A stretch of DNA of 63,023 nt, the filler included, from Reclinomonas americana ATCC 50394 (taxonomy: Eukaryota): the NCBI GenBank assembly GCA_048213135.1. It is 25 parts of 25 records of this genome, joined end to end, with 100 filler letters (N's around TTAATTAATTAA, not from the genome) between each part and the next. Parts side by side here need not be neighbours in the genome. Positions count along the whole stretch, not along the records: positions 1 to 1,694 come from AFZH01020998.1; positions 1,795 to 4,990 come from AFZH01020999.1; positions 5,091 to 7,036 come from AFZH01021000.1; positions 7,137 to 8,764 come from AFZH01021001.1; positions 8,865 to 11,254 come from AFZH01021002.1; positions 11,355 to 13,385 come from AFZH01021003.1; positions 13,486 to 14,689 come from AFZH01021005.1; positions 14,790 to 16,062 come from AFZH01021006.1; 17 more parts are not named here. The stretch is one strand, 5' to 3'. Within the stretch, counting starts at the first letter, position 1. The number at the start of each line of letters is the position of its first letter. Shown one piece after another: positions 1-60,500 of this stretch. The notes under the pieces were generated by a model, which did no database searches, had not been told where the DNA came from, and saw only the letters and a list, made by a program, of their open reading frames with translations. A program made the position numbers and the translations under genes.

Positions 1-1582
1 CCTACACACACACACACACAGCCACTGGTCAGCAATCATAATCGGTCACACCACAACTGCATTGACGAAACATGTGCCGCCAGCGCACGCGCGGCCTCCG
101 TGTCGACGCCAGCCAACTCGTCGTCATCAAGTTCCTCGTCCTCGTTGATCTCGTCCAGCTGGTTGCCGCCATCCTCGTCGTCATCGTCGTCAATGACGAC
201 ATTGACGCCGAGCTTGTCGTTCAAGGTGTCGGCTGCACAGGTGAAGACGTGAGCCACTTGCACACACATACACACGCACACACAAGCACACACACACCAT
301 CCACGGCCATGCCATCCTCAGTCTTGAAATCGGTGATTTTGCGAGACAGGTTCGTCAGCTTTGCAAATGCCTCGTCACTGATGGAGCCGAGAAACTCCTG
401 GATCGACGTGCGCTTTTCCGGTTCCTGTGGGAGAGGGAGGGCGAATCAGTTGGATATTCTCTCGCACAGTCACAGCACGCCAGACACCACCACGCAACTC
501 GTTTCCGCTCGTCCTTGAGCACAGTGAGCATTTCGTCGACTGCATTTCGCAGCACGTCGCGTGGCTGGTCGCCAAGCTGCATGTGCACAAATCCCAGCAA
601 CATCTCGTAGACCTGCACACACCCCCAATTAGAAGTGCGACAAGAGTGCGCAAGCGAAGCGCGCGACGAGCATAAACATGCCTGGCGCGTTTCGCCGGTA
701 CGTGGTCGGTACGCCGAGCTGTCCAGCTCGTCCAGTGCCTCCAGCACATTGCCGGCCTGTCCCTTGCGACGCTTGCGCGCAGCCTGCGACATGGCAGCAT
801 CACTGTCGGCCACCTGGTCTGCTGAAGCCTCCAGCCGACGCTTTCTCTTCTCGAGACCCTCTGCCACCTCCTCCGGGCTGCAATAACACAACAAGTCAGA
901 AGCGCGCACGGTGGCTGACTTTGACAAGAAGCATGAAGAAGGAAACACACCGTTCCCGCAAACCAACTCGATCACCCATCTTGCCAATGACATTGCCACG
1001 AATGGTGATCGGCTCGCCCGAAGCCTGTCCATCGCCGCGTCGTGTCCGCGACTCCGACTCGAGTACAAGGTTCACATTCTGTGGACACGTGAACGCGTGT
1101 GTGCAAGTGTGAGTGTGCGCGCGCGCGAGTGTGCAGAGCAACAAAAACATGTTCCACCCCTCTTTCCCACGCTTGCCCACTTCCTCTCCCCTACTGCCAA
1201 CTCACTGCTGTGCACATCGCAGAAAGACGAATGACAAGAAAGAACCACCGTCGACGAGAAGGGTCCACATCACATGTGCCGCATGCGTGCACTTTGCATG
1301 TGACTGCATGTCGCTCGGCATGCAAATGACACCAAGACTCACATGCACACACGCGAATGCACCAGGCTGCGAAGAGAGCGAGCGAGGACAAGAGACAGAG
1401 ACAACACGGTGGCGCACGAGGCACAATGCCCGCCTGCACATGGCGCACACACGCACACACACAGAGAGACGCACGCGCACAAACAACTCTACAGTGCCAC
1501 TCCCGCCTGAACGCACCGACTTGTACTCGTAGCCACGGAACACCTCGTACTCCTGATTGCTGCCGCTCCCCCGGTGCGACAT
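1..1582 (-). CDS. SNRNP200: U5 snRNP 200 kDa helicase Brr2, 5' part (spliced; runs off the window start)
   Basis: Spliced translation MSHRG..GYEYKS|NVNLVLESE..GKMGDRV..YRPRTGETRQ|VYEMLLGFVHMQLGDQPRDVL..LGVNVVIDDDD matches the Brr2 N-terminus (YEYKANSNLVL, MGD, YxPKTxETR, LGDQPRD). Confidence 0.93.
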
Positions 1583-1694
1583 TGTGTTATCAATGCAGGA
1601 CAGACACCCTTCGTTCTTGTCGCTCAACGCTCCGTTTTTACTCGTCGCTACCTCGTCGCTGCACTTTGAGAGAAAAGTCTACGGCCGGGCATCC

Positions 1695-1794
1695 NNNNNN
1701 NNNNNNNNNNNNNNNNNNNNNNNNNNNNNNNNNNNNNNTTAATTAATTAANNNNNNNNNNNNNNNNNNNNNNNNNNNNNNNNNNNNNNNNNNNN
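1695..1794. other. Assembly spacer N44-TTAATTAATTAA-N44 (first of 24; the last is 61560-61659)
   Basis: Identical six-frame stop linker at every contig junction. Missing gene parts show that the true gaps are often much longer than 100 nt. Confidence 0.98.
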
Positions 1795-1843
1795 CCGGAA
1801 CTGTGCGCAGTGAGTGTGTGTGTGTGAGAGAGAGAGAGAGGAT

Positions 1844-1877
<34 letters not shown>

Positions 1878-1881
1878 TGCA

Positions 1882-2220
1882 CCTCGCGCGCCACCAATCA
1901 CATCGCCTTCGGTAGCCGCCCACTCGACAACACATTCGAGATACTCAAACACGGCTGTGAAGAACGGAACTCCTGTTTACAAATGTGAGCGAGAGAGGGA
2001 GCTGCGCGAGTGTGTACTCAGCCAGCAGCCGACACCAACCGGCCAGTGTGACATCGGGCGACTTGACAAAGAGCGTGGCGGAGGCCTCGGCAGTGCCAAC
2101 CACTGCACCACCGACATCGAAGGCCGGGATGTCCTCACGCAGGAACTCTTGCACAGTGCGATCGGCAAAGTCTGGCGGCAGAAGCGCTGCAAACTTGGAA
2201 ACGGAAGACGCCACGGCCAT
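1882..2220 (-). CDS. QPRT: Quinolinate phosphoribosyltransferase (NadC), first two exons; remainder in the gap
   Basis: MAV..VQEFLREDIPAFDVGGAVVG..ATLFVKSPDVTLA|GVPFFTAVFEYLECVVEW..EG matches the eukaryotic QPRT N-terminus. Confidence 0.9.
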
Positions 2221-2353
2221 CGCTTGCACACACAATGAATGACGGATCACAATCTCGTCCCGCTAGCGTCGACGTCGTCCTCACTCCAAACCTTCCCATC
2301 ATAATCAATCCTTCGTCGGTGACGGCACCCGCGGGTGTGATCTCCCCACAACC
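2221..2353. promoter_or_regulatory. Probable bidirectional promoter (QPRT / coiled-coil gene)
   Basis: Divergent ATGs 133 nt apart. Similarly, 103 nt separate the divergent MDH1B-N-like and Mic60 ATGs (26587-26689). Confidence 0.55.
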
Positions 2354-5179: not shown

Positions 5180-5233
5180 CATCAATATTCCTCAACGCGT
5201 ACATCATTTTGTTTCACGTGCAGAGTGAGTATG

Positions 5234-8200
5234 TCACTGCAAAACGAAGAGCTTGTTCAGCAGGTGAATGAGAAGCGACAAGTCTAACTGCACTTCCGCC
5301 AACTCCACCACCGTCTCGCCCTGCTGCTGTCGCTCAAGTAGGTAGCTGAAATCGAGCTGCAGAGAGAATAACCAGTGAACTGCACGCACACAGCACAGCA
5401 GCCGACGACAAAAACGACATACTTGCTTCTCCATCAGTGGCTTCTTCCGGTGCTGAAGCACAAGAGTAAATACACCGGGCTCCATCGAAGAAAAGCACAG
5501 TTGTGTTCGCTTGGCACTACGAGCATGTATGTCGTGAATAAAAAATGAAAGAAAAGTAATAACTCGTACCCCCCGCGCAGCAATCAGACGCAACACATCC
5601 GTCGGCAGCGTCACCGCGGTCACCACACCCTCCGCCTCCATCTTACTGAGTGCGTAGTTGAAGGGTCCAACTACGCGTACAGCGCCGGTATTGCGGCTTG
5701 ATGCATCCCTGCGAGACACGCACATCATCAGCCAGAAACAACACTCAGGGCAGACGGGTGGGCCACACACAGCCACACACACACACCTCGGATTGTACGC
5801 CTTCTTCCGAATGTTGGCGAGGTACTCTTCGAAAAAGTGGCGTTGCCCCTGCGCACGATAAAGCGTCGGCCACGGCATTTCAACAACAGGAGCATAAAAA
5901 CAACGCACCATCAAAAATGTGCTGTGTTCTCTCAACTCGGCCAACACTGATTGCAGCATACGCATGCGCGCTGTCAATGCTTGCATAATCTGAACACGAG
6001 CCTCAATGGTCTGCGAGTTGGAAAATCGGCCAGTAAGACGACGAGGCAGAGAGGGTTGGGTAATCGATAAACAGGGAGATAGGAGACGGCGACGAACCGA
6101 CTGGACGTGGCATAGTATGCACTGGTCGACTGGCACTCGAGCCTCGCCACACACCACCGGTGGTACCATGTCGTCGGTCAGCGCAAGAATGCTCTCGCTC
6201 AGCTGTACAACGGTGCAAGTATGTCAGGAGGCCCACAGAGAGAGGGCGAGAGTGCGAGCGACGTGTGGACATGTTTGCGTACCCGCTTGATCTTGTCAGC
6301 GAGCAAGTAGTCCTCTGTTTGAATTGCATTGAGCTTACCCGTCTGCACACAATCATACAGATCAAGGAGGAGACAAGTCAGCGATATATGTGCAGGTGTC
6401 AGACCGCAACGAATGCATCCCACCTGCAATACAGTGAGCAGGGACAAGCCGCCGATTTGAGCCGGGACCTCGGGAAGCTGCCGCAAGACGCTAACAACGC
6501 CGGAGCACACGGTTTCAAAGGCGCTCAGTGGCTGATGTTGTGGGACGGACTCGGTTTCTGAGAAGACATTGCATGCATGTGTGGGTGCTACCAAAAAATA
6601 ACGACAAGCACGAACACGGGGGGCAACCGCGCGGGGTACCTGGTGCAGGCGATGATTCAAACGGCGGCACCAATCGAAGGTTGAAGAAATTGTTCTCCTC
6701 CGGTGGTACGTCCAGCGGTGGATCGCCTTGTGCACGCAGCTGTGTAACCAGCGCGCTCAGCTCATCGGTTGGGTCCGGAGCCTGTGAGCGCAGAGACAGA
6801 GAGAGTGTGTGTGAGGAGGAAAGGCTCATGCTTTCGCCGCCGTGTACAATGGTGTGCCAGCGTAACTATTGAGCCAATGTGCTCCAGCAGCAGTCGGTGG
6901 ATCATAAACACTTCGTTCAGCGAGATGCTAATCACATTCGAGTCGCGCCGTGTGGACTCGAGATACCGGTCAACCTACGCCAGATTAAAGAACATACACG
7001 GTCGGCGAACCATCTACCAACACACACACACACACANNNNNNNNNNNNNNNNNNNNNNNNNNNNNNNNNNNNNNNNNNNNTTAATTAATTAANNNNNNNN
7101 NNNNNNNNNNNNNNNNNNNNNNNNNNNNNNNNNNNNAAAGAATGCCGTGACGCGAGTGCCGTTGCGTTCAAAAAACTCATTCAGCGGTGTCATGTACGCC
7201 TCCTTTCCGCCGTACATGACTCCGTTGCTCAGATTCTGCAAACGACAACGTTTAGCACGACGCAAAGCAGGCGGCCAATAGACACGCCAACAACAGCTGT
7301 CGTACCTGTACTAGCTTGCCGATGATAATAAAATTGCGCTGCATCACTTCTGTCACGCTCTCCGGTCGCAACAAATCTTTGGCTGCTCAATGGTACAGTA
7401 ATTCGTGTTAGTGGCGAAAGCCAGAATGAACAAAACATACAACAGTGGAGCAACACACAACTCTGTGGGCTACTGATGGCTGGCGTGATGAACCGCAGGA
7501 ATGCAAGACCACCAACAAGTCCCCACCGCTCTCGCTCGTCGATGTCAGGGTAGAAGGTCTGCAGCGCCAATGACAAACAGCTGTGAAGCGACGGCTCCTG
7601 TGGCGGCAAGTGTGCAAAGGACGCGTACCGCTCCGTACTCCAATATCTTCTTGCACAAGAAACGCAGGCCATACGGCACCTTCTGGACCGATGCAATAAT
7701 GCGATCCACAATCAACTGAGTGTGTTCCTGGATCAACCGGAATCCTGCAAGCAGGCACAACAACAACAAACAACGCGTGATGAGTGAACTGCCAGTCGCA
7801 ATCACCACTTGTCGAGTTACGCACGATCTTCCATGATGGCACGAACGGCGGGAATTTCAGCAGCTTCACCATCCTCCAACGACTCAGGACCCGGCAACGG
7901 TCTTCCCTCGCGCTGTGCGGCCTCTCGAAGACCGCGATACAGCTGTCTCCACAACGCACATGCATGTGCACAATTTAGGTCGGACAGCAGAGCACGCGTG
8001 TTTTTCAGAAGAGAAATCTGCGTGTAGCGCACCGTCGACGGGCGGATTTCCAAATCGAGTTCACCCTGCGCCACCAGCTCCTGCAGTGGCTGCGACAAGG
8101 TGTCTGTCAAGTACTCTCGGCACATTCGGCGGCTGCGCGCGCCACACGTGTGAGAGAGAGACATTGTTCGTCAACACAGAAGCGGGGGACGCTGCGGCGC

Positions 8201-8711
8201 ACTTGAAAAACACGTTGAGCATTTTGGTGAAAATAGTGTTGGTGCGCATGAAATCCGTGCGTCGGGGACACCGCTCAAACTCTTGCATCATCAGCATCTA
8301 CACCAACGGCGGCGAGCGGCAGCAGAGCAGCAGCATCAATATCAGACACGCATGCAGCGAAGACACGGCTCCACCCGACGCACCTCGAACATCGTAAGCA
8401 ACAGCCGCTCCTCCTTGCTGTCGTACTGATCACCAAAGAGCGTCAGTACCACCGTCTGCAACATTCGTTGGACGTCGCCTGCGCGCACACACGCCCGTGA
8501 GTGGAAGCACGACGAGACGCAAAAAAACCACGACTTTTTTTGGCACGCAACGACCCGACACAAACTGCACCAGACTGGCCATGTACTGCGGCGATCGCTG
8601 CAACACGAAAAAGATATTTTCGTACAGCCGGAATCGTTCCGCCACCTGCGAGGTCTGCGGCACAGCATCTTTGACGTCGCGCAGCGATTGCGACAACAAT
8701 CCCTTCAAATC
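5234..8711 (-). CDS. RasGAP with RasGAP_C domain (Gap1/Sar1, IQGAP-related family), 5'-partial
   Basis: LFGDQYDSKEERLLL, DFMRTNT (arginine finger), VPYGLRFLCK, VGGLAFLRFITPAISSPQ, YMTPLNEFF; C-terminal LDLSLLIHLLNKLF. Confidence 0.88.
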
Positions 8712-8918
8712 CTGCACATCGAAAGAACACACACACAGAGAGAGAGAGAGAGAGGGAGAAAAGCNNNNNNNNNNNNNNNNNNNNNNNNNNNNNNNNNNNN
8801 NNNNNNNNTTAATTAATTAANNNNNNNNNNNNNNNNNNNNNNNNNNNNNNNNNNNNNNNNNNNNGGTACTGGTGGTGGTCGCTGATTGGTTGCACGTATG
8901 ACCGTGTCATGCACGCAG

Positions 8919-9907: not shown

Positions 9908-19056
<9,149 letters not shown>

Positions 19057-19224: not shown

Positions 19225-20541
19225 AACTATCAGGGGTGAGTCTCCTATTCTATTCTGCATCTGGTCGGTTCGCTCTGCAGTCACCTGACACGATCGTGTG
19301 GCGTGGCGCAGCAAGTATCCGCACGAGGTGCCGCCCAACGTGTTCGCCTTGGCCGAGCTTGCCTATCGCAATCTGTGCTACCAGAAGGAGAACCAGTGTG
19401 TCATTATCTCGTTGCGTTTGTCAGGCCGTGTCTCAGGCGTTGAACGAGTTCAACTGACCAGACGGCGTCAGTGGTGAGAGTGGCGCAGGCAAGACAGAGA
19501 CCGCCAAAATCTTCACGAGCTACATTGCTCGCGTATCTGGTGACTCCGAGCGTGCACAACAAATCAAGGCCATGATGATGGAGTCGAATCCGGTGCGTTT
19601 TCGTTGTGTGTGCGCTCTCTCCCGCTCGTGAATATGTGCGACCTGACCGCACTGCGACTTTGCGGCCGTGCAGATGCTTGAGGCTTTCGGTAACGCCAAG
19701 ACGTTGCGCAACGACAACTCGTCTCGCTTCGGCAAGTTTTTCGAGATCCAGTTCAACACGATTGGACAGCCTGTGGGTGGAAAAATCACGAATTGTTGCG
19801 TACCTTGTGGCCAGTGCATTCTCCCGCTCTCTGCAGCTCACGACGCATCACCTAGATCTGCTGGAGAAATCGCGAGTCGTGAACCAGATTGCAGGCGAAC
19901 GCAACTTTCACATTTTCTACCAGCTGTGCGCTGGCTTGTCACGCGACGAGAAGGGTTTGTCGGCATGAGCGCTGCACTGTTGTTGTCCACGTGTGCACTT
20001 TCCTCATCCTTCTCTGCAGCCGCTTACCGACTCGGCACGGCTCGGGACTACTTCTACCTGACTCGCGGCCAGACCACAGAAATTGCTGGTGTCAACGACG
20101 CGGAGGATTTCCATGCTTGTGTGGTGCGTTGCAATTTGTTTTTCCCTGTATCTCGGGACGAAAAAACTGAGCCTCTTTGTGATGGCTGCGGCTATCGATC
20201 AGCATGGTATGGAAGTCATGGGTATCAACAGCGCGGAGCGGAATCAGCTGTTCTCGATTCTCGCTGCCATTCTGCACCTTGGCAATATCGAGTTTGTGCC
20301 ACACGACTCTGGTTCCACCATTCGCAATCCTGACGGTTCGCCAGTAATCCTGTACCCCCCGAGCGCAGACTGTGTGTGCGTGTGTTGATTTGTGGTTTGC
20401 CCGTGTCCCGCAGCGTTGCAAATGACGGCTCACCTGTTGGGAGTGGAAAGTGCAACACTGACCGACGCGCTGGTCACCCGTCGTGTACAAATTGGCGGCC
20501 GCCGTGGCTCCATCATTCGCTCGCCTCTCAACCCCGACCAG
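19225..20541 (+). CDS. Myosin motor domain fragment, class I-like
   Basis: [75 protein letters not shown]. Confidence 0.93.
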
Positions 20542-20656
20542 GTACATTCAGCTGTTNNNNNNNNNNNNNNNNNNNNNNNNNNNNNNNNNNNNNNNNNNNN
20601 TTAATTAATTAANNNNNNNNNNNNNNNNNNNNNNNNNNNNNNNNNNNNNNNNNNNN

Positions 20657-22010
20657 GACGACGGAGGGTACGACTCGGATGTCACCGACGACGATGCCGG
20701 TGATTCCCCGCGTAACGATCACGTGATCTTTCGTGCTGCCGATGGAAGCATTTACTTGGGTGAGATCTCTGTGTGTGCGTAAGTGCGAGAGAGCGCGCGG
20801 CAGGGAGAATGCTGATGTGGTGTGTGTGTGTGTGTGTGTGTATGCGCGCGCACGCGCACAGGGCACGATCCTCGTTGGCCCCTGTCCAATCCGCCACCAC
20901 TGAGTAGTGTGGCAGAGTACGGTCGACTGCCGGTGTACTCGCAGTTTGACTTGCTGCGCTTGGCGCCACACCTGCCTGGTGGTGCAGGCGGTGGTGCAGC
21001 CGGGCATCCACACGACCTGGCTGGTTTGTCATCTGCTCACGTCTTCCGTGTTCCAATCTTTTTTTTCATGTCGACTTTAGACGCACAACTTGAGGCACGG
21101 CTAGCAGAGTTGGCCACTCTCACGCGCGCAGACTACGAGATTATGGTGTTTATGCGGCGGCGCCGCTCATTCTTGTTTCTGCTGGCGCTTGATGCCTTTT
21201 ATTTTCTTTTGCTGCTGCTCGGTTACGTTGGCGACGCACTGTTTCCCTTCGCCTCCCCGCCGCGCTCTTCTCATGCAGAGATGAACTTGTGTAGTGTCAT
21301 TCACCTCCAAAGTGGAGACTGATCACGACACGCTTTCGCTGTCAAGCCGCGTTGCGAACGTGCTCATCGATACATTCGGAGTCTTTGTTGTGTTGAAGAG
21401 TTGCGGGGACTCGACGCAGAGATCGTGCAACCCACCACCTCATCAATGGTGTGCTCCGCAGACAACATCAGCGGTCTCTCGGCGTTTGTGGTTCTCGAGA
21501 CTCTGAGTCTGGCCTTCATGACGTTTCGTGACACACTTTTTGTGCTTCTCCGCTGTGTGCGTCGACGCTGACGTACGTTGGTGTAGATTTTCGGAGCTGA
21601 CACCATTGATTCTGGTCCGCCTTGTAATTCTGCTGCTGGCCCTGCAACTCAAGTCCAACCTGAAGGGAATTTATGATGTTGCGATTGGCACGATAATCTT
21701 TGCACTGCGTACTCTATAGTTGCCGTGCACGCTGATCCCGTCGTCGTCGTGTATACAGTTACTCCATTCGGTGGCGCTCATCAGTGCGAGCGATGACATG
21801 AATGCTGCTGATCGCGACGATGGTCTGGCGTCGGAGTCGAGTGACAGCGAGTCGAGCGGATCCGATGTGGAGAATCCTCGCCCTGAACACCCCCCCGCTC
21901 GTAGCGACCGCGCACTACTTCGTGCGCCCTCAGAGCCTGCCGAAGTTGTATCTGGTAACGCCAGGGCGCCGCTGCCGTTGCCCATCATGTCGGACGCTGT
22001 AAGAGTGTAG
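20657..22010 (+). CDS. Unknown multi-pass (about 4 TM) membrane protein, 5'-partial
   Basis: Seven exons join in phase. Hydrophobic segments include FLFLLALDAFYFLLLLL, VLIDTFGVFVVL, LSAFVVLETLSLAF and LILVRLVILLLAL. Acidic tail; TAG at 22010. Confidence 0.7.
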
Positions 22011-22047
22011 CAGACACTGAATGTGCATTTCGTTTTTGAGTGTGGAA

Positions 22048-24315
22048 TCAGTATCCAAACTTTGCGTTCAGAGCTGTTCTCCCGTCGCCCCTCTGGCCAG
22101 TGGGAGCTACCCAAGCGGATTCGCTTGACGCCGTCTCGTCCTCGTCTTCACGCGTGTCGCCGACAACAGTTGTGTTGCCGGACATTTCCGCCAGGCGATG
22201 CAAGTCCACATCCACGTCACCCACAACGGACGCATCGATCACCAGCTGAGCATCCGGATCCAGCGACCGACGAACGTCTTCCAGCTGTCGGCGCCGGGCA
22301 GCCTGTTTCGCCAGGTGTTGAGCGTCGTCGGCTTCCGGGTCAGCTGTGCCTGTACCTCCCGTCATCCCTGCGCGTCGGTTCGTGGTCGGCGCTGCCGCAC
22401 GCTTCCGCCCGAGTGCTGGTGGCGGAGCCATGTCACCATCAAACACACTAAGTGCCGCATCGAGCAGCGCCTCGGCCTTCTTCTGCTGCGTGCGGGAAGC
22501 AGTGGACACGGCAGGCCTTCGAGCAGACGACGCTAGAGCGAGAGAGAGAGAGAGAGAGAGACGAAAGCAAAGAGTTAGCGACGCAGGAGCCTCCTCTGCG
22601 AGACAAAGTATGATGATGATGATGATGANNNNNNNNNNNNNNNNNNNNNNNNNNNNNNNNNNNNNNNNNNNNTTAATTAATTAANNNNNNNNNNNNNNNN
22701 NNNNNNNNNNNNNNNNNNNNNNNNNNNNCAGGCTTGAAGCACGATTCGTACAGGAAAGATTGCTGCGCAACTCTGGTTGTGCCTGTTGTGATTCTGGCAC
22801 CGCAGCAGGAGTTTCTTTCGTGATGTTACTACTTCTGACGTCAAACGAACAGCACGCAGTGAGCAACTCAGACTCACAAGGACAACAACTCTCGACTGCC
22901 ACGAAACGACGCCGATGGAACAGACGACACATGACTGTGCCTCGAGAGTCAAAGTAAGTGTCAGCTGGAAAACACAAAACAACACACCAAAAAAAAATGC
23001 ACCTTCCAGGAGCGCGCAAGGCGGGACGTGTCAACTCTGCAACGAGAGAATTCAGCAAATCACGGTCACTCGATGCGGGGGACTCAAGCAACAAATGACC
23101 GACCGACAAGGCGCTGAACAGAGGCCAGCTCGGTATCCACAGCCGTCAGTTGCGTTCGGAGTGTACCCTCATCGTCACGCTGTGTCGATACGCATGAATG
23201 ACGGACACACACGGGGAGAGAGAAGCTGGGTGATCAACAAAACCTTGATGCTGCTCTGTATCTCTTGCATGTACGCGTCAAGTTCGTCGTCGACAGGCGC
23301 TGACAGTCAAAAAGCGAGACCACTGTGAGAAGCAACTCGACCAACACATCAATGGAGGTGAACATACAGCGGACACACCGACGGCTGCTTCAGTGGCCGA
23401 CGAGGTCGCAGCTAGGAGCGCGCGTAGACGTGTCTGTTCAGCAAGCAGCTCGTCCATCCGTTTCGACAACGTCTCAAATGTCTCCACCGGAGCCGCCTCC
23501 GCCAGAGAACTCTTGTCTCCCCGTCGACGCTTTCCTGACAAGAAAAAACGCGGTTGGTGGCCATGAGAACCACACGGAGAGGAGTCGCGAGAGCGCAACG
23601 ACGTGCAGTGCGATCGTAGAATTCGTCCTCGTCCGAGTCGTCGGAATCGCGCCCACGTTTTCGCACCACTGGCCCGGTGTCTGCAGCCGCATCTCATGAG
23701 ACGAAGCACGTCACTTTGCGCTACTCATGCAAGCAGCAACTACGAACCCTCGGCCGCCTCGCTTTCCTTCTCTCCATGGCCTTCCTCGTCGCTGTCCGAG
23801 GGATACTCTGGACTCCAGTCACCCCCGTCCATGCCCCTGCGACTCACGTGAATCAGCAAGCAGTGGATCACGCAACCGTGAGGGCGATGGTCGTTGTGAT
23901 AGCCACGCACCACGAGCAACCCTCGCTGTCGTCTGCACGCGCAAATGCATGAGTCCCCACAGCTCGTCGCCGCGCTGACGCTGGTGGAGCAATGTTCTTG
24001 TAGAACTCCTTGTCGGGCCCGCCGCCAAGAACAAACATGCGGGTGGACTGGCCAAACGTGACAATGTCACCGGTGCGCACACGTGTGTACACTCTGCGCT
24101 CACGAGAAGAAGCACATTGAGGTAACAAGTCACGCCCATACGCATCGAGAAAGAGACGTACTTGGGCTTTACCGCCTTCCTGTTCCACGCACTGCCGTGC
24201 GTCGAGCCGCAGTCGTACAGGAACACCTCCCGAGTCGCACCGCGATGCTGAATGACTGCGTGTTGGCGCGACACAGAGGGATGCTCGAGAATAATGTCGC
24301 AGGAGCTGTGCCGGC
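22048..24315 (-). CDS. SLC4A1AP: Kanadaptin (FHA-domain protein), 5'-partial
   Basis: FHA domain GRHSSCDIILEHPSVSRQHAVIQH..DCGSTHG..GDIVTFGQSTRMFVL; DSDEDEFYDRT; C-terminus WVAPTGQRGDGRTALNAKFGY*. Confidence 0.9.
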
Positions 24316-35405: not shown

Positions 35406-37440
35406 GCCACAAACATCCACTCCCATTCCGGTTGTTTCCGTGTCGCCGTTTGACGTTCCCGAGTCGGCGGCCGCTGGGAGCAGCGAACCAAGGTGATACA
35501 CTCACACAAAAGAGACAACAAAGGCTCAGTCTCTTTGCTCTATACACTTGACTCCTTGTTGTATCTGAGTCTCTGTGCTCGTGGTGTGTGTTTGATGCTT
35601 CCGAGCCCATGACATTTTGTCGTGTGTGCGATGTCTGCTTCAGCTTGTCTTGCATGCTCTGTATATGTGATTCGAGCTTCCTGGTACTTCCGTTCATCCT
35701 TGGCCTTTCTGTTGTTCTGTTTTCCTTTCCTTCTTTTTGTTGCCGCTCACACCCTTCATCATCGCCAGTGACGCCGAGGAGGAAGACTACGGACCACGCC
35801 GACCTGGACGGGAGGAAGAGGAAGAAGAGGAGGACCGTGCCCCCGCCGTGTCGGCTGCCGCCGGCGCTGTGAGTGGTGCATCCGCTGCTGCCGCCGCCAT
35901 GGCCAGCAGTGACGCCGAGGAGGAGGAAGAGGAGGACGCGGATGAGCGACACGATCGCGATGATGACGACGATGATGATGATGACGAGCATGGTGGTGCA
36001 GCGAGCAGTGCGTCGGAGAGCAGTGGCACTCGACAGCGACCTCGGCGCCGCCCGCGCACCGTGTCGGTGGACCGCATGGTGAACACGATGTTGCAGATGG
36101 GCATTCCCCCGACGCAAAGCAACGTGCTGCGCTTCCTGTTATTGCAGTCGAGGTGAGGATATGAGAGGGGATTGTGTCTCTGGCTTTGTTGCACTTTAGT
36201 GACTGTTTCTGTTTGCAGGCTCGGTCTGCAGCTGGACGATGAGGACGAAGAGAGTGAGGCGGGCAGTGCGTCGGGCGGCAGCACAGCGACAGCTGGCTCA
36301 TCCGGCAGCCGTGCCCCCACCCATCGCGGCCGGCTACCAATTGACGCCAAGACTTACAAGCGCAAGTTCGAGGGCCACGTGTCGCGGAGAACGTTGCGCC
36401 CATCCCGCAACTATTTGATGGCTTTGCATTGTGTGCTCACTTAACGACCACCGCAGCATCAAGTCCTGCAACTTCTTCGGTCCCAACTCCGAGTACGTCG
36501 TCTCGGGCTCGGATGACGCCCGCATCTACATTTGGGAGAAGAGAACTGGGCGTCTCTTGAATGTGCTGGAAGGTTCTTCGTTTACCCCCGTACGTTGCGC
36601 AAGAGTGGTCGTCTCATGGTCACGCAGGTCACGACTCGGTGGTCAACTGCGTGGAGGCGCACCCCACACGGCCCGTGCTCGTCTCCAGTGGCATCGATCA
36701 CGAGGCGTTTGTGTGGGAGCCGCACGGCAACTCGATCTACCTCAGCGATCTGGCGGAGCAGCGGGATGAGCGGCGGCGGTTCATGGATACTATAATAGAG
36801 GTGAGTTGTGGGGAGAAGAGGGTGGTGGTTAGGAGGGTGGAGGTGGAGAGTGCGGGGAGCGTGGGAGGTGAAGATGGTGGAGAGCGTGTGAGTAAGGGGT
36901 GGGGAGCATGTGGGTAAGAGAGTGGGGGTGTGTGGGGAGGGTGTTAGCTGCGGAGAGTGGAGAGCATGTGAGGTGAAGAGAGGGTGGAAGTGTGAGACTG
37001 AGGAGGGTTGGGAACGTATGAGTAAAGAGAGTGGGGAACGTGTCAGTTGAAGAGAGAGGGTGGAAGCGTGAGACTGAGAAGGGTTGGCTGCGTGTAGGTA
37101 AAGAGGGTTGGGAACGTGTCAGTTGAAGAGATGGTGGAAGTGTGAGACTGAGGAGGGTTGGGAACGTATGAGTAAAGAGAGTGGAGAGCGTGCGAGGTGA
37201 AGAGAGGGTGGAGAGCGTGAGACTGAGGAAGATGGGGAGCGTGTGGGTGAAAAGAGTGGAGAGCGTGTGAGGTGAAGATCGTGGGGAGCGTGTGAGGTTA
37301 AAGGGCGGAAAGCGTGTGAGCCGAAGAGGATGGGAGTTTGTGAGGTAATGAGGTTGGGGAGTGCGTGCTGGAGGCTCAACCTGTCATCGGTGCAGGAAAA
37401 CCGCAATTCGCCGCCGCGCAATGGCTGCAGCCTGATGTGA
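35406..37440 (+). CDS. DCAF8: DCAF8/WDR42-like WD40 protein, 3' part
   Basis: YKRKFEGH..TL|SIKSCNFFGPNSEYVVSGSDDARIYIWEK..LEG|HDSVVNCVEAHPTRPVLVSSGID; last exon ENRNSPPRNGCSLM*. Confidence 0.8.
36830..37360. repeat. G/A-rich degenerate minisatellite in the last DCAF8 intron
   Basis: Recurring gagagggtggaagtgtgagactgaggagggttgggaacgtatgagtaaagagagtgg and related ~20-nt sub-units. Confidence 0.85.
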
Positions 37441-37549: not shown

Positions 37550-38954
37550 TCACTGATTGCAGTCCTCCTCGGGCGACCGTGTTCGAATCCAGTAAATGGG
37601 TCGCGGGCTCCAAAAGTCGCCATCGTCGCCACGCTCTCCTCTCTCATTAAACACCTTTCTGAACTCGTTGTAGTACAGCGGGGCTTGCTGGACCGAAATG
37701 TACATGTCGGTGGTCTGCGAGGGGAGGAAGGGGGAAAGGAGGCAAGGTTGAGTGCGTGATCAATAGGGGGAAGAGAGATGAGAACGTGATCAAGGGTGAT
37801 AGGAGATGAGTAATCAAAGGGGACAGGAGATGAGAGTGAGATCATGGGAGATACGAGGTGAGAGAGTGATCAAGCACGCGATGAAAAGTAGGGGCTCTCT
37901 CTCTGTGTTACATGTGCTCCCCACACTCACCGGTTCAAAGGGTGTCAGGAAGTCGCCCTCAAATCGCTGTGCTCAGAAGGTGAGCCGTTTGTCCACCATT
38001 ACATCACACATTACAACTCACCGCACACGGTGGGGCCGGGGTGGCAAAGATATTCAACGGGCCACCACCCTCCCAGTTGAAATCAAAGGCCGCGGCCTTT
38101 ACAAAGTCAGTGGTGAAGCCAAGGCCACCACGGAAGGCGACGTCTGTGCGCCGACTCGTGAGTACACAAGGGGGAAATAGGCAGGCTCTGTGAGGAGTGC
38201 GCAACAGAGGCGGTTCTTTGGCGGAAACGTAAAGGCGCCGTCACGCACAATGATGCGAGCAGCGTCCTCGCGAACGCTGCGGAACACAAACTTGGAGCCG
38301 TCTGCGCACAGCAATGAGTCTCAACACACGATGTGAGTTGCGCAGGCTACCGCACCTGGCAGTGGTCGCACGAGTGCCATGTCGGGCACCTCGCCGAGTC
38401 GCAGCACTTCTACTTCGCTCTGGTGTCGATTCGGTCTCGATTTCATCTCCCTGCGGACGACAGACGGAGATAAGCGATGACCGACGCGCCAGTGATCACA
38501 GAGAGGAGCAAGCGGCTGAAACATCGAGGAGGCACGCCCAACAAGCGAATCACAGCCAGGAGAAAGGAAGGACTCGATCGCGAAATAGATGCCCGAGGCA
38601 ATCAGTGCCTCACTCACTCCGATTCTTCACAATCGCCACCATCAACAACACACAAATACGAGCCCAAACGAAAGGAAAAGCACAATCCACGACAACTCGA
38701 TGTCAACACCGCGCAAACTCCGAGACGACGACGACGCGCCAAATGTGTGCATTTGAGCATCATTCTCTCTCACACAAACACAACATGCACACCAGTTTCC
38801 ATGAATGCGCAAGAGTGAACGGAGGTGAGGGAGAGAGTGTGTGACAGAGAGTGAAGTGCAGGAGTGTATTCTCGTCTTCGCACTCAGTTCTCTCAGGCTC
38901 CCTCCTCTGTCTCTCCGTCTCTCTCACACACACGCTCTCTGTGCACGTGTGAAC

Positions 38955-41027: not shown

Positions 41028-43322
41028 ACCCCGAACTCGCCCCACCCCGTCAACGCCCGCACTACGCCACCGCCCCTCGACCCTCTCCCGACCACTACCC
41101 CGGCGCACCACCTCGCCCATACCACCAACCCTCATTTCGCGGTTGCGTCGCCCGCCCCCCTTCTCTCCTTCCCTTTCCCCACCTCTCCTCACCGTGCCAC
41201 AGGCGGTCGCGGTCGCGGCCGCGGACGCCCACCAACCATCATCACGCGGTCGACTGGCCCGCAGCAACCGCGCCCCTTCTCCGCCCGGTCTCCACCACCC
41301 CCCTCGTCCTCCCCGTCCACGCCAACGACTCCCGGCACAGGCGCCGTGGCCTCGCCACCAGCCTCCATTCCTCGCTTGTCGCTCGGCCGATCGGCCACCG
41401 AGTCCGAGTCGCCTGTGGGCGGTCGCCGTGCACCACCAATCGAAATGGATCGCACCAACAAGCGGATGAACCCGCAGCTGCGAAAGGAATTCGTCAACAG
41501 CAAGGTTACACACCTCCCTCTCCTCTTTCCTCTCTCTCTCTCTTTCTCACTTTCCCACCCTCACAGGAGGCCATGCGCGAGCGCTTCAATCGCAAGCCCT
41601 CCGCCGGCCACATCAACGACTACTCGCAGCACTTTGTCGACACGGGCGAGCGGCCGCAGAATTTCATCACCAACGTCGGCCCCAGCAAGTTTGACGACTA
41701 CCCCGAACTGCAGGAGCTGGTCCGGCTCAAGGACGCGCTGGTGGCCGAACGCAACACGCCACCATTCTCGCTCAAATGCGATCTGCGCACCTTCGATCTC
41801 GCCTCGCTCAAGTGCCAATTCGATGTGATTCTCGTGGATCCGCCGTGGTCCGAGTATCAGCGCCGCCTGCCCGGCCTCGTGCGCAGCAGCTGGTCCTACG
41901 AGGAGATGTGTCGACTCAATGTCCGTGCACTGGCGGCGCCGGCCAGCTTTGTGTTTCTGTGGGCGGGGTCGGCCGATGGAGTGGATCAGGGTGCGTTTTT
42001 GTTGGGGAAGGAGGTGCATTTGTCGTCTTCGGTCGTGCTCATCGTTCTCTCTGCCTTGCTCTCATTCTTTTCCCTCTGTTGCTCTCTTTCTTCTCTCCGC
42101 CTTGCACTCATTCTTCTCCCTGCCGCGCCCTCTTTCTTCTCTCTCTCTCTCGGCCAAGCTCGTCTCTCCGCCTCGCTCTCGTTCCTCTCTTTGTCTTGGT
42201 CTCTTTCTTCTCTCGTTTTGCTCTCTTTCTTCTCGGTCGTGCTCTCTTTCTTCTCTCTGTTGTGCTCTCGTTCTTCTCTCTCTTCCGTTCTTTCCTCTCT
42301 CTATCTCGTCTCTTTGTATTGCTCTCGTTCTCTCGGACAGAGAGAACGAAAGCGAGGCGGAGAGAAGAAAGAGAGCACGACAGAGAGAAGTGAGGCAGCA
42401 AGGCAGAAAGAGAGAGAGAGAGAGGATAGAAAGAGGGAAGAAAGAGACCAAGACAAAGAGAAGGAAGAGTACAAGGCAGAGAGAAAGAGAGCAAGACAGA
42501 GAGAAGGCAGGGAGAACACAGAGAACAAGAGAAGAAGAAAGAGAGCAGGGCAGAGAGAAGGCTCTCTTTCTCTCCGCCTTGTACTCATTCTTCTCGTCTT
42601 GGTCTCTTTCTTCTCTCTGTCTTGCTCTCTTTCTTCTCTCTGCCTTGCGCTCTTTCTTCTCTCGGTCTTGCTCTCTCTCTTCTCTCTGCCTTGCTGTCTT
42701 TCTTCTCCCTGCCTCGCCTCTTTCTTCTCTCGGTCTTGCTCGCTTTCATCTCTCTCTCTCTCTTCCGTTCTGTCCTCTCTTTCTCTCGTCTCTCTGCATT
42801 GCTCTCGTTCTTTCATCTTTCTTCTTTGCTCTCTCTTTCATCTCTCTTTCCTCTCTCTTTCTCTCTGTCCCTCACTCACTCTCTCTCCCTCTCCTTCTCG
42901 GCGACAGGCCGCCTGCTCCTCACACGCTGGGGCTTCCGCCGCGTGGAGGAAATCTGCTGGATCAAGTCCAACAAGGTGCGCAACAAGCTCGAGTCGGTGG
43001 AGGTCGGCACGCTGTTCAAGCACTCCAAGGAGCACTGTCTGGTGGGCATGCACGGCACCGTTCGGCGCAGCCACGACGGGCACTTGGTGCACGCGAATAT
43101 CGACACGGATGTGATTGTGGCGGAGGAGCCGCCGTTGGGAAGTTGCGTGGAGAAAGGGAAAGGGGATAGGGAAGGGGGAAAAGGAAAGAGAGGGAGAGAG
43201 AAATGGGGAAGGAGAGGCGAATAGAGAGAAGGAGATGATACAAGCACCTGTCCTCACGGCAGTGTGTATTGTTCGAGAAGATGCATGTGGCATGGCGCTG
43301 TCTTGTCTTCTTTGATGCAATC

Positions 43323-44630: not shown

Positions 44631-47600
44631 TCATGTCGTGGGTGGTCGACGCGGTGGCGGGATCGTCGACGCGGCCGGTGCCGTCGGCGGCCGAATCGTC
44701 ACGTGACTCAGACTGGCGAGTGATGATTGCGCGGCCGCACTGCCAGTCACGCTGCCGGAACCCGACGCCAGCGAGCCGTGACCCGACGACATGCCAGACG
44801 GCGATCCCGTGCGGTAGTCCACGCTGCCGGCCCCGCTATAGGCCGCCGCCGACGTGGAGTCGGGGGCGTCGGGAGTGGCAATGCGCGCACGACCGCGCAG
44901 CTGATTCGCCGCCAGAGACAGCAGAGTGACGGGACCGGTCGACACTGGCACCGCGTGCGAATCTGTCGGCATGGCGCGATGCACGTCGACATGCGTGGAG
45001 AGCGCATCGCCACGCCCACCCTCTGGCAGCGCCGGCAGCGGCGGTGTGCTGCTGTGCAACAGGCGACGTCCAGACGACGACGAAGACGATGTGCTGTGCG
45101 AGTCCTGCCACATGTCGTCGCCGACTCGTCGCCGCATTCGCATACCGGGGGCCGACATGGCATCTGAAAATGGAAAAGGGTGGTGTCACACACACACACT
45201 CACGTTGATATACACACAATCCCCCATCCCTCTCTCTCACCACCAGCGGCGCGAACCTTCGTCAGCTCGCGGCGCAGCGGCCTGTGCACGTCCCGCTGCT
45301 GCTGCTGCATCGTGGCCTCCACGACCACCACCACCACCGTGCGAGCTATTTGGCCGTCCAGCGGCCGACACGGTGGTGGGTGAGGGCGCCGCAGCAGACG
45401 AGGACGAACCGCCACCGCCACCACCAGACGCCGCAGCATTGGCCGCCGCCGCACGTCTCCGCATCATGACATCGCGCGCCTGTTCGCGCGACGGCTCCAC
45501 GTTGAAATGGCGCACGACGGGCGCATTCGGGTCAGCCGGCACCACCTGGGCGGGCGGCACAGGGGCACCGGGAACCACGGCACCGGCTTGCGCGCCTGCC
45601 GCTGCCGCACCCGCGCCCGNNNNNNNNNNNNNNNNNNNNNNNNNNNNNNNNNNNNNNNNNNNNTTAATTAATTAANNNNNNNNNNNNNNNNNNNNNNNNN
45701 NNNNNNNNNNNNNNNNNNNAAGAGAGAAAGAAAGGAAGTAGAGAGAGAGAGAGAGAGAGGAGTGAGATTCATGAGCGTGCGCAATGGTGAGGGGCACAGA
45801 GAGTACGCACTGTTCGATAATCTGCCCGAGATTCGGGTGCAAAAAGGGAGACACCGGTCGCACGAGGTACCCCAGGTAAATGTACATGACGTACACAATG
45901 AGCTGGTTGAGGGTGGGCGGAAGCTGGGGTGCGGCAAAGATGGATGAGCGCACAGTGATCGGAAGAGTTGAGCGACAAACAAAAACTTACCCACGCCTGA
46001 CGCCACGAGAACAGGTACAGGTCGATAAACACCAACATCACCGGATACACGAGGAACACAATGACGAAAATGACGAGCATGTACCTGTGGCAACGCAAAA
46101 GAAGAGTGTGAGAAACAAACAAACAGAATCCTTTATGTGATCCTGCGCACGCAACTGGTACCACATGACACGCCGCGGCAGGTTGAAATGCGAGGCCATC
46201 TCCAGCGTCACCCAGCTTCGCAGGCGCTCTGTGTTGGTGCTGAGGGTGATGATGATGGCCAGCAGCACGATGAAGCGCATGACGAGTTCGGTGGCGAGGA
46301 AGGCGGTGCAGACGGTGGAGCCGGAGCAGAGGGCCGAGAGGAGTTGGAAGAGGAGGTAGAGGGCGAACAGGCCTGTGGGGGGAGAAGGGTGAGAAGGGGG
46401 GAAAGGGGAGGGGGAAAGGGGAGAGGGAAGGGTGGGGAAAGGGGAGAGGGAAGGGTTGGGAAACGGGAGAAGGAAAGACGGTGGCGGAGAGGAGACAAAT
46501 GGGAGGGATAGGAATCAGAAGGGAAGCAAGGAGGGAGAGAGAGAGAAAGAGAAAGAAAGAAAGCAAGAAAGAAAAGGGGAAAAACCAACAGCGAGAGAGG
46601 CCAGGCAATCAATGAGAATGAGACAACTCAAGAAGTGATAATGCGAGGGCAATCGCAGCACTGAAGCGCGAGGACTGAAGAAGAAGCTCACCTCCTAGCA
46701 TCTGATACTCGCGTGCATTGAGATGCATGCGCAAAACGCGCCACCCGAGCGACAGCAACATAATGTATGCCAGCAGCGTGTTCACAGAGAGAACGCCAAG
46801 GATACTCGACACCGTACTGTCGCGACAGGAAGAGAGTTAGTATGTGTCAGTGTAGGGCTGACAGGGCAAGTGCGCAACTAAAAGCCGTTGCTCTCGTTGC
46901 CCGTCTGGCCAATCTCGATCTGGTTCACGAAGCGGAAGAGCATTTCCATCACTTTGATGACGACCACTGCACTGAAAATGTGCTGCAGGATGCGTGTGCT
47001 CCGCCTGTGCGAGAGATGTGCGTCAGCATACATACAAAGAGTCTCCATAGATATCTCTCATTCAACGAACTCGGGTCACATTATCCTTATCTCAGTCACC
47101 AAAAGAATGAGGAACGAAGGATGCACAGTAAAACACTCTCCCACGCGTTCTCGCTTTTTGTCTCAACCCTGCCATCTCTCTCCTTTACACGCACACCAAA
47201 CACAGACGGCTAGGTCAATACTAGAACGAGAGGAATGAAACATGCACAGTAAAACACTCTCCCACGCGTTCTCGCTTTTTGTCTCAACCCTGCCATCTCT
47301 CTCCTTTACACGCACACCAAACACAGACGGCTAGGTCAATACTAGAACGAGAGGAATGAAACATGCACAGTAAAACACTCTCCCACGCGTTCTCGCTTTT
47401 TGTCTCAACCCTGCCATCTCTCTCCTTTACACGCACACCAAACACAGACGGCTAGGTCAATACTAGAACGAGAGGAATGAAACATGCACATGAAAACACT
47501 CTCCCACGAGCTCTCTCTTTCTCTCCCCTTTGCAGACGAAGGGATAATTTTAGAATGATTGGAAAGACACGTGCGCAGTAGAACACTCTCTCACGCGCTC

Positions 47601-57476: not shown

Positions 57477-57583
57477 TTGAATAATGAACAAAACGAATGT
57501 GACATGTTACAACATAGTCAATGGCTGCATTGGAGAAAGAGGTGACCGGCAACTCGTGTGCAGCCATTGTTGGGTGATTATCG

Positions 57584-60500
57584 TCACTTTTTCAACGACG
57601 GACGCCGCTTCTGCATGCGCTTGATTTGCTTCTGGCGCACATTCAGGGTGCCTGGCCGAATACAGAAGTGAGTGCGAGCCAGAATGAGATGGGGGAGGGG
57701 AGAGAAGCCGAACCCAAATGACTGGTGACCGACACGTTCTTCTCCGGTCGCAGGAACTGGCCCTGCTTGACCACCAGGTCGAAGCCGCCGATGGATTCTT
57801 CGGAGGGGGGACTCCTACAGAAGGAGAATCAAAAAGGGGAAGGGAGGAGAGGATTAATAAGGGAAAGGGATAAGGGAAGGGAGGAGAAGGGATGCAAAAG
57901 GGGAAGAGAGAAGAGGGGAAGGGAGGAGAGGGGAGGATAGGGGAGGGGAAGAGAAGAGAGGGGAAGAGAGGAGAGGGGAAGAGAGGAGAGAGGAAGGGAG
58001 GGTAAGGGGAAGAGAGGAAGAGGGGAAGGGAGGAGAGGGGGAAAGAGGAGAGGGGAAGGGAGGAGAGGGAAAGAGGAGAGGGGAAGGGAGGAGAGGGGAA
58101 AAGAGGAGAGGGGAAGAGAGGAAAGGGGAGGGGAAGAGAGGAAAGGGGAGGGGAAGAGAGGAGAGGAGAGGGGAAGGGGATAAAAAAGAGAGGATAAAAG
58201 AGGGGAAGAGAGGAGAATAAAGAGGAAAAAGGAAGGGGGATACGGGAAAAAGCATAAGGGAGAAGGGATGAGGGAAACCGGATGCACGGATGAAGATGTG
58301 GGGATCAGGGAGAGAGGACAAGGGGAAAGAGAGATACAAGGGAAAGTGGGCACGAGAGAGAGAGACACTGAGGAGAATAATGAAGAATGAGATAGACAGT
58401 GGTGAAGATTACAGCATTAGCAACAGATAAACACAGACTGATGGCCCATGAGACTATCAATGGAGAAGTAACCATTGCGGCAGACCAGAAACAGACAAGT
58501 TGAGAATGAAGAAAGACAAACCTCCTCTCGTTGTCGACAATCGTGACCACTTCATCAAGCATGCCAAACTTGAATTCGTAATCCGCCGTTGTCTCGGCCG
58601 AGAGCGACGGCGATGCATTGACCTCGAGCAGCCACGGCTTCAGCTCGTTGTCGATGAGCACGTCGAAGCCGTACAGCTCGAAGCAGTGCTTGTCTTGGAT
58701 GATGACTTTCTGCACTGTCAGCAGGGTGCGCAGGAGCATGGCCTGTGTGAAAAGGAGAGAGTGAGATAAAAGGAAAAGGGACAGGGAGAAGGAGGAGAAG
58801 GAGAAAGAAAAGGAGAGGGAGGGAAAAGGAATATGGAGAGGGAGGGGGAGAGAGAAGGAGAAAGAGACAGAAGCAGGAGGAGCAGGGGGAGACAGAAGAG
58901 AGAGAATGAGACGGAGAGAGAGAAGGAAACCGAGAGAATGATACGGAGAGCAGGGCACGAAGAGAATGATACTGAGAGAAGGGCACGAAGAGAGAAAGAG
59001 GACACGGTGAGAGAGTGGAGACAAGCGGAGAAATAATGAGAGGGATAGAGAGAAGGAGACGGATAGTGAGAAGGAGACGGATAGAGAGAAGGACACGGGG
59101 AGCGAGAAGAAGACGGAATGGGAGAGAGAGCGAGAGAGAGAAAGCAAACATAAACTATCTCCTCGCTGTCGCAGACTTTGAGTCTGAGTCTTCTGGCGCT
59201 CAACTGTACTTGCAAGACGTCATCGACCCACTGATACAGTCTGCTCTGAGCGTGTGCTCTCGCTGGAACACACAGATTTGGGTGCGCGACGTTGCACGCT
59301 TGTTTGTTTAGAGCTACCGTTATTTCTCTCAATCTCGCTCTGTCGTCTCGCTCTCAGCTAGCCCTATGTTTACTGCGCTGCGTTCTCATTCTCTCCCGTA
59401 ATCTCTCGCTCTTACATAGACTCCTTCGCACTGTAATGCATTGACTTGGCGCTGTCGTGCTGTACATGTGCTTGTCTAACGAACGTGCTGTTTCCCTCGC
59501 GTCTCCTGCTCAAGAACATCGTCGTTTCTCTCCACCAAGCCCCTTCTTCACTCTCCCAGGTGCCCTCATATCTCTCTCTCCACTCACTCCCTCCCTCCCT
59601 CCCTCCTCTCTCTCTCTCTCGTGCTGTACACAATCAAGCCATTCAGCCTCGGCATCTCACTCTCTCTGACAATCTCTTTCCCTTACCTCCTTCCCCTATC
59701 ACCCGTCCCCCTTCGCCCCCTTCCCCTATCACCCTTCCCCCTTCCCCCCTTTCTCGCTTCCCACCAACCTGCACATCCGCAAACAACTTGTTCACCGCAT
59801 CGGAGCCGTGCTTCGTCACCATAAACAGCTTCAAATTGCGCAAATCCCACTTGCAACCCTTTTCGGCGTCGTAGTTGGTGCCGGTCTTTTGAATGGCTAC
59901 ATTGGTGAGATGAATGTCTGCGCGTGCACGCACCGTTTGTTAGAGTCACCCCCACACATCCTGCTCTCCTACCCCCTCTTCCCACGCAACAGGTATTGTC
60001 AATCTCCTTCTCGTTCATGGAGAAGCGGTGGAAGGAGAAGCGCGCGAATCCACCGCGGTAAATGTACACATTCAGCGGCGAGTACGACGTGACCAGCACG
60101 TACAGGCGCAGATCGAATTTCTTGCCGCCGACCAGGTACGGGTTCTCCACGTAGCGCTGGACAATGTAGTTTTCGGCCTGCTGTTGGTCCGTGCGCCAGC
60201 GGTAGTCGCGCTTCCACTCGCTAATGTGGCTGAGTTTGTTGAAGAGGAAGATGCCCTTGCCTTGCGCTTTGCCGATCTGGATACAGGGGTGGATTAGAAA
60301 AAGGAGGAGCACACCAGCACATCGGCTCGAATACTTGGAGATGGAGGTGATGGAGGGAGAGAATGAAAGAATTATGAATGAGCTTGGGTGTTTGACTCCC
60401 AGTGCAAAGGGCAATAGGGTTGCTTTCGAACAAGAAACGATGACGAAAAAGAAGTGCGTGTGTTGACAACTGCACAAGATTGCCAGAGAAAGAAGGACAC

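Follow-up and report, generated by a model that had tools for sequence, protein, structure and literature searches.

In the window analysed here, a stretch of 63,023 nucleotides (nt) from the draft genome of Reclinomonas americana ATCC 50394 (GCA_048213135.1), GTTGCG ranks among the two or three most frequent 5' splice-site sequences, and between about a quarter and a third of the short introns start with it. Judged by homologue alignment and by a scan that ignores the donor motif, the GTTGCG sites are true and abundant intron starts, and the preference for G at the last exon base (-1), which marks the canonical donors of the window, shifts alongside. We think it probable that GTTGCG(T) introns are genuine U2-type GT-AG introns which U1 small nuclear RNA (snRNA) would read in a shifted register, as a routine alternative to the canonical one.

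Sixteen introns in TTLL9, myosin-I, ATR and BRR2 were fixed by protein homology. Homologues were fetched for TTLL9, myosin-I and ATR, and pairs of neighbouring ungapped tblastn matches were given to a junction resolver in which the donor motif plays no part. All GT or GC donors and all AG acceptors within 45-60 nt of the match ends were considered, in-frame and stop-free joins were kept, and these were ranked by the BLOSUM62 score of the spliced peptide against each homologue and by nothing else. In BRR2 the reference was PDB chain 8ro0_B: its residues 104-144 match residues 151-191 of the open reading frame (ORF), and its residues 145-182 match the following exon. Five of the 16 donors were GTTGCG, six were GTGCG, and the other five were GTTTGT (twice), GTTGGT, GTATGT and GTGAGA. 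In the alignments, GT-AG ends restored both the reading frame and protein continuity for the five GTTGCG introns and for the 11 others (Table 1). The GTTGCG intron of the ATR kinase domain is visible in tblastn as a 22-residue insert. The first-pass annotation had held that conserved motifs in myosin, ATR (RRL/YMRTF) and TTLL9 (NT/YIHLTN; slashes mark junctions) anchor such donors, and the homologue alignments bear this out. The 16 do not include myosin intron 6, for which 20336 and ~20372 are the alternatives, or the ATR junctions near 12428, 12112 and 10954-10960. A comparison of the ATR FAT exon with representative proteins gave 10 matches, with no usable full-length relative among them.

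A boundary moved by one base, G/TTGCG...AGN/, was rejected after the junction codons had been read by eye. With this boundary the sites at 19795, 59990 and 11151 would read NCLL, TCIH and LCM, while the homologues have conserved NYLL, TYIH and LYI/M, so that Tyr would be replaced by Cys. The site at 19411 does not discriminate, since both boundaries yield Ser. Thus, as far as the aligned sequences go, the GT-AG reading of the GTTGCG introns stands.

The second line of evidence was a donor-blind scan. Every GT on either strand with at least 25 open codons upstream in some frame was taken (6183 sites), and an intron was called feasible if a YAG lay at the given distance, CTNA[CT] was present within the preceding 45 nt, and the frame was open for at least 25 codons beyond. 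Only needed introns were counted: candidates that were stop-free and a multiple of three in length (3n) were excluded. At 58-85 nt, 21 of the 59 usable GTTGCG sites had a feasible intron, against 7.9% of all 6183 GT sites. Three control distance bins gave 3 GTTGCG matches each and six other bins gave 2-6, from which about 3 to 5 of the 21 matches are expected by chance. GTTGCG ranked first of 255 hexamers (p=1.8e-9), followed by GTTTGT (11/57) and GTGCGT (11/69), and it ranked first in all six parameter sets in which the branch motif was required (p from 1e-7 to 2e-9). As heptamers, GTTGCGT matched at 12/23 sites (control 1.0) and GTTGCG[ACG] at 9/36; the related class GTT[ACT]CGT matched at 6/21 (control 1.3, p=0.005) and GTT[ACT]CG[ACG] at 1/34. 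After background subtraction the excess was 18 for GTTGCG, 9.7 for GTGCG and 18.3 for other GTNNGT, of a total of 56. GTTGCG therefore accounts for about 30% of the introns fixed by homology and, among short introns after background subtraction, for about a third. The first-pass annotation had called it a major donor class, and both approaches confirm this.

All 21 candidates carry CT[GCA]A[CT] 11-40 nt before the end of the YAG, which is partly by construction, as the scan required the motif; a branch-site motif upstream of the acceptor was also seen in the homology-fixed introns. Weaker earlier tests agree with the scan: looser hexamer tests gave p of about 1e-3, and a comparison of in-frame with out-of-frame sites gave 11 vs 5 (p=0.011). 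Over both strands of the whole window there are 69 copies of GTTGCG and 85 of GTGCGT, where dinucleotide shuffles give 47.2 +/- 6.7 and 45.3 +/- 7.0, respectively. GTAAGT, the near-universal donor, is nearly unused in this window: it has 10 open-frame sites with one scan match, and it is found at none of the 16 homology-fixed donors.

An artefact of hand-splicing bias, chance, a T added to GTGCGT by sequencing, or introner copies is highly improbable. The first sites were picked by eye in a gapped draft assembly, and parsing does not come easily in this genome: gene parsers free of a donor model were too noisy for a catalogue because codon bias is weak, and expectation-maximisation on acceptors drifted towards GAG acceptors. 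Against an artefact, the motif-blind homology analysis and the donor-blind scan concur. Two of its forms were rejected separately. A homopolymer error that added a T to GTGCGT would keep the -1 G, which is absent, and an all-versus-all blastn of the 21 introns found 9-10-nt matches only, half of them the donor itself, which does not fit introner copies. U12-type introns, whose 5' splice site is RTATCCTT, were also rejected, as no such motif is present in the donor sequences.

The base before the intron separates the two classes. The canonical site in this window is G/GT(G/T/A)NGT, with G/GTGCGT most frequent, and among the fixed donors -1 is G in 11/11 canonical sites vs 0/5 GTTGCG sites (Fisher 1/4368), the five bases being C, T, T, T and A. 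The scan agrees. Its GTTGCG matches have -1 G in 2/21 and -1 A in 7/21 (-1 A at 1182/6183 of all GT sites), while other GTNNGT sites match at 26/96 with -1 G vs 46/434 with another base, a tripled rate. At the other end of the motif, T is found at +7 in 12 of the 21 GTTGCG scan matches and at +6 in 8 of the 11 canonical fixed donors. TGCGT is common to both classes, as +3 to +7 of GTTGCGT and +2 to +6 of the canonical donor. Written as heptamers, G/GTGCGT and /GTTGCGT differ only in the second base: both are G-N-T-G-C-G-T, cut at whichever GT is present, and the -1 G of the canonical class takes the same place as the +1 G of the GTTGCGT class. The TTLL9 donor cag/GTTGGTG also has T at +3, but with G at -1 and +5 and T at +6 it is in the normal register. 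These comparisons support GTTGCG donors as a one-base shift of the GTGCGT class; the earlier description of them as GTGCGT with an extra T is thereby upheld and sharpened. We infer the U1 register from sequence statistics alone.

A bulged U could produce the same letters. U1 would then pair with G+1 and U+2, one U (+2 or +3) would be flipped out, and pairing would resume from G+4 to U+7, with no uncoupling of U1 binding from cleavage. According to the available part of PMC4856993, pairing with one nucleotide bulged out at +3 (or +2) is a validated register of human sites, and the GTTGCG donors resemble it in that a single additional nucleotide separates GU from the paired block downstream; the sequence GT-T-GCGT is equally compatible with it. 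However, the human bulge keeps -1, +1 and +2 paired, and a -1 G would pair with C9 of U1 and stay favoured, which is not what the fixed and scanned GTTGCG donors show. Moreover, the duplex modelled with standard U1 is near 0 kcal/mol. Because the -1 G is absent from the GTTGCG class, the shifted U1 register is favoured, and we regard the bulged U as unlikely.

The first-pass annotation had listed 24 GTTGCG donors and two probable ones, and the motif is present at all 26 coordinates, as are the related motifs GTTTCGT, GTTACGT, GTTTTGT and GTTGGGT at all 10 of theirs. As introns, the 24 fared unequally. Five are homology-fixed and 17 are among the 21 scan matches, but seven were missed by the scan: 28310+ and 56109+ solely since their introns are 3n and stop-free and were removed by the filter, 43142+, which adjoins an N gap, and 5594-, 16737-, 25180- and 49472-, which lie outside the 21. 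The scan added 36393+, 14556-, 8551- and 6410-. The two probable sites, 22771- and 53806+, extend into N gaps. Among the other anchors that had been named, the METTL14 intron (GS/LRKP) crosses a gap, and the Rab donor (9105+) is half-anchored, its upstream exon having no match in PDB or Pfam searches. In the gene called Timeless (52799-53858, plus strand), no Pfam family was found in any ORF tested; its GTTTCGT donor at 53191 is a scan match and joins ORFs of 130 and 144 codons. Three GTTGCG introns, at 11086-11151 (minus), 28310-28390 (plus) and 56109-56171 (plus), are 3n and stop-free, so that retention would add 21-27 residues in frame rather than cut the protein short. The candidate in-frame ATR donors GTTACGT at 14580 and GTTGCGT at 14556 (minus strand) may be a tandem donor.

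Table 1. Homology-fixed introns and GTTGCG candidate introns of the donor-blind scan. A slash marks the exon-intron or exon-exon junction.
Feature	Gene and junction	Exon end/intron	Position	Strand	Length (nt)	Evidence and remarks
GTTGCGT intron, fixed	myosin-I	ctc/GTTGCGTTT	19411..19471	+	61	9 homologues; Pfam Myosin_head positions contiguous
GTTGCGT intron, fixed	myosin-I, ITN/YLLEKSR	att/GTTGCGTAC	19795..19855	+	61	11 homologues; Pfam 173/174 contiguous
GTTGCGT intron, fixed	TTLL9, DNT/YIHLTN	cct/GTTGCGTGG	59918..59990	-	73	8 homologues
GTTGCGC intron, fixed	ATR kinase domain, RRL/YMRTF	ttt/GTTGCGCTC	11086..11151	-	66	in frame, stop-free; 11 homologues
GTTGCGT intron, fixed	BRR2 plug domain, DERKR/EPEKR	cga/GTTGCGTGG	425..498	-	74	8ro0_B 144/145 contiguous
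Canonical comparator ccg/GTGCGTT, fixed	myosin-I	ccg/GTGCGTTTT	19593..19673	+	81	9/10 homologues
Canonical comparator cgg/GTGCGTT, fixed	ATR	cgg/GTGCGTTCA	10606..10684	-	79	13 homologues
Canonical comparator cag/GTTGGTG, fixed	TTLL9	cag/GTTGGTGGG	58743..59768	-	1026	9 homologues
Fixed intron	TTLL9	gag/GTGCGTTTG			233	
Fixed intron	TTLL9	ccg/GTATGTGGG			829	
Fixed intron	TTLL9	gag/GTTTGTCTT			707	
Fixed intron	myosin-I	agg/GTTTGTCGG			65	
Fixed intron	myosin-I	gtg/GTGCGTTGC			79	
Fixed intron	ATR	acg/GTGAGATGA			77	
Fixed intron	ATR	aag/GTGCGCAGA			60	two homologues, thin margin
Fixed intron	ATR	gag/GTGCGGTTC			74	two homologues
GTTGCGG candidate			21400..21461	+	62	scan
GTTGCGA candidate			21678..21758	+	81	scan
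GTTGCGT candidate			30941..31006	+	66	scan
GTTGCGC candidate	WD40 gene		36393..36456	+	64	scan; new
GTTGCGT candidate	MT-A70 gene		41142..41202	+	61	scan
GTTGCGT candidate			56679..56736	+	58	scan; acceptor uncertain by a few nt
GTTGCGT candidate			56782..56844	+	63	scan
GTTGCGC candidate			46817..46878	-	62	scan and donor-model-free parser
GTTGCGT candidate			46085..46155	-	71	scan
GTTGCGC candidate			38144..38205	-	62	scan
GTTGCGC candidate	FHA gene		23535..23599	-	65	scan
GTTGCGA candidate	ATR, N-terminal part		18237..18312	-	76	scan
GTTGCGT candidate	ATR		14483..14556	-	74	scan; in-frame alternative 24 nt inside the 14580- GTTACGT intron
GTTGCGT candidate	ATR FAT domain		12349..12428	-	80	scan; homology non-decisive
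GTTGCGT candidate	RasGAP gene		8479..8551	-	73	scan; new
GTTGCGG candidate			6343..6410	-	68	scan; new

Under the shifted-register reading, the U1 small nuclear ribonucleoprotein (snRNP) would bind the heptamer first and always in the same register, with the UGCGU core and the first G as anchors. A catalytic-stage check (U6, U5, Prp8) would then cut at the GU of the heptamer, which in the second class sits one base further 5'. Duplex energies were modelled with ViennaRNA, without pseudouridine; for U1 the standard 5' end given in PMC4856993 was used. The energies were -4.8 to -9.1 kcal/mol for the 11 canonical donors and +0.7 to -1.8 kcal/mol for the five fixed GTTGCG donors. Since pairing between GUUGCGU and such a U1 end is very poor, we predict that U1 in this organism has co-varied to an ACGCAC-like core, or that a second U1 is present. 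In the model, a hypothetical ACGCAC core paired with the GTTGCG donors at -5.1 to -8.7 kcal/mol, through the shifted UGCGU pairing, and with the GTGCG donors at -12.7 to -15.0 kcal/mol. Such a core would account for a shifted class that is nearly all GCG and a canonical class that tolerates TTGT, ATGT and GAGA. We offer only tentatively, and as the less likely side of the question, the fuller proposal that this lineage routinely uncouples U1 binding from the cut site, with one GC-rich footprint, two cleavage positions one base apart and a changed, ACGCAC-like U1.

Two U1 snRNAs, or a dedicated snRNP, might instead divide the labour as U1 and U11 do, one pairing with GUGCGU and the other, ACGCAAC-like, with GUUGCGU. 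In favour of this, the second class shows its own sharp consensus, as the GTTGCGT matches in the scan indicate; lineage-specific changes of the U1 5' end are known, and Physarum has both standard and modified U1 candidates (bioRxiv 10.1101/2022.06.08.495308, available part). However, a single recogniser explains more simply why -1 G and +1 G share one place in the heptamer, and the 3' signals of the two classes look alike. We consider such a division of labour improbable.

The candidate GTTGCG introns are all 58-81 nt long. TTLL9 (57815-61521, minus strand) has three long introns, of 707, 829 and 1026 nt, with the canonical donors GTTTGT, GTATGT and GTTGGT, and the shifted class may be limited to short introns. 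These lengths would suit recognition independent of U1 pairing, in which short introns are defined by branch-site or 3' factors and by proteins (U1C, LUC7-like), and GTTGCG is read by a protein or by U6; the negligible modelled duplex with standard U1 would suit it as well. Such recognition is very unlikely, as the GTTGCG motif is the canonical U1-paired motif moved by one base, which would be a coincidence if U1 pairing were irrelevant.

Several points weigh against the shifted-register reading itself. The -1 G rule rests on 16 sites, and GTGCG scan matches, which include many false positives, also occur with other bases at -1: of 32 matches, 13 have T, 9 have C, 8 have G and 2 have A. A plain shift predicts that GTT+TTGT, GTT+ATGT and similar forms should be as common as their canonical counterparts, but the shifted class is nearly all GCG, together with the GTT[ACT]CGT matches given above, so that a GC-rich U1 core has to be assumed in addition. 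Co-variation of U1 is itself no given, as Thecamonas and Mamiellales keep a standard U1 (bioRxiv 10.1101/2022.06.08.495308, available part). The pairing of the U6 ACAGAGA box would also need to tolerate an extra base. When the branch motif was not required in the scan, GTTGCG ranked 1 to 9 with p of 0.002 to 0.05, at a base rate of 24-44%, where power is lost. Finally, the sample is one 63-kb window and may misrepresent the genome.

Roca and Krainer reportedly described the shifted-register 5' splice sites of mammals in 2009, and the number of such sites is said to be very small. In human 5' splice sites, bulges at +3 (or +2) are documented as well as shifted registers; U1 can pair away from the cleavage site, U6 then sets the cut, and U6 helices need not follow U1 registers (PMC4856993, available part). 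As in the mammalian shifted-register sites, the introns described here start with GU-U followed by the normal +3 to +6, so that U1 would pair one base along while the cut is made at GU. In mammals, as far as the available sources go, such sites are an atypical minority with an AAGU core, whereas the class described here has a GCGU core and accounts for roughly a quarter to a third of the sampled introns. Unlike in the mammalian sites, -1 G is lost in a class-specific way here, a feature known from sequence alone.

The canonical class of the window, G/GTGCG(T/C/G) with a CTNAC branch site, is of the GYGCGY type. Donors of this kind are known as GTGCGTG in Ostreococcus (PMC2483917, available part), as GYGCGY in Mamiellales and as GUGCGC in Mastigamoeba, where U1 has co-varied to ACGUAC, while Thecamonas has +4C (bioRxiv 10.1101/2022.06.08.495308). 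The available parts of these reports mention no GTT-shifted partner class in GYGCGY-type lineages. In Entamoeba, the usual donor is GUUUGU, and U1 carries a matching change at its 5' end (AACAAAC; core ACAAAC; bioRxiv 10.1101/2022.06.08.495308, available part), which is a precedent for +3 U donors and for the U1 prediction made here. The Entamoeba donors form a single class in the normal register, with +5 G and +6 U, and GTTGCG differs from them; the GTTTGT and GTTGGT donors of the window, which have -1 G, are of this Entamoeba-like normal-register type. Full-text literature searches found no description of a GTTGCG donor class, in keeping with the first-pass remark that no genome is known in which it is this common, but most subscription papers lie outside their coverage, so one may have been missed. 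The shifted register is a known mechanism, and what would be new here is a major class with a GC-rich core. One logo aligned at +1 blurs the two classes, and therefore such a class could easily go unseen.

The window has a G+C content of ~53% and consists of 25 contigs of ~1-5 kb each, a gapped and intron-rich draft with 100-base spacers between the contigs. The 24 spacers (1695-61659) are identical: 44 N, TTAATTAATTAA and 44 N. Since the ATR gene continues in the right order through five of these spacers, the scaffold order is real, but coding sequence is lost at the gaps. Pfam searches of stop-to-stop ORFs found BRR2, RasGAP, Rab, ATR, myosin head, FHA, WD40, MT-A70 and TTL domains, along with a borderline mitofilin match under the curated cutoff, and a Pfam run on 230 small ORFs gained little. 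The closest database proteins have 75-79% identity, in the most conserved exons only. No Rfam family reached its gathering score in the window, and at E<=1 there was no snRNA, U1 included, the matches being sub-threshold and miRNA- or snoRNA-like; a tRNA search of the window found none.

The myosin-I gene (plus strand) ends at about position 330 of Pfam Myosin_head, at the gap 20557-20656, and much of the gene is absent from the scaffold. The contig after this gap (region 20557-22628) carries, again on the plus strand, exons of a hydrophobic protein that is unrelated. In the MT-A70 gene region, a GA/CT-rich, inverted, low-complexity stretch at 42300-42700 has clustered sub-threshold miRNA-like Rfam matches on both strands and is probably a hairpin-forming simple repeat. 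Two very long ORFs of 749 and 664 amino acids without a Pfam match lie at 30987-35163 (plus strand) and are probably a single large lineage-specific gene.

Few features of intron starts are as constant as the +5 G and the U1 register, and shifted or bulged registers in human genes are exceptions that confuse splice-site predictors. If the shifted class equals the canonical one in frequency throughout this genome, there would be hundreds to thousands of natural substrates with which to ask at which step, that of U1, U6, U5 or Prp8, the cleavage site is fixed, and the genome would offer a test of the co-evolution of snRNAs with donor motifs. If U1 binding and cleavage are indeed uncoupled, about a third of the introns would lack the near-universal +5 G, U6 would accept an extra base between GU and the pairing block, and the genome would be a natural, genome-wide experiment on the choice of the 5' cleavage site. 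A mixed donor logo would look merely weak at +3 to +7. The shifted class would also explain mis-annotation by standard gene finders, which use a single donor matrix aligned at +1, and gene models for this genome would need a two-class donor model.

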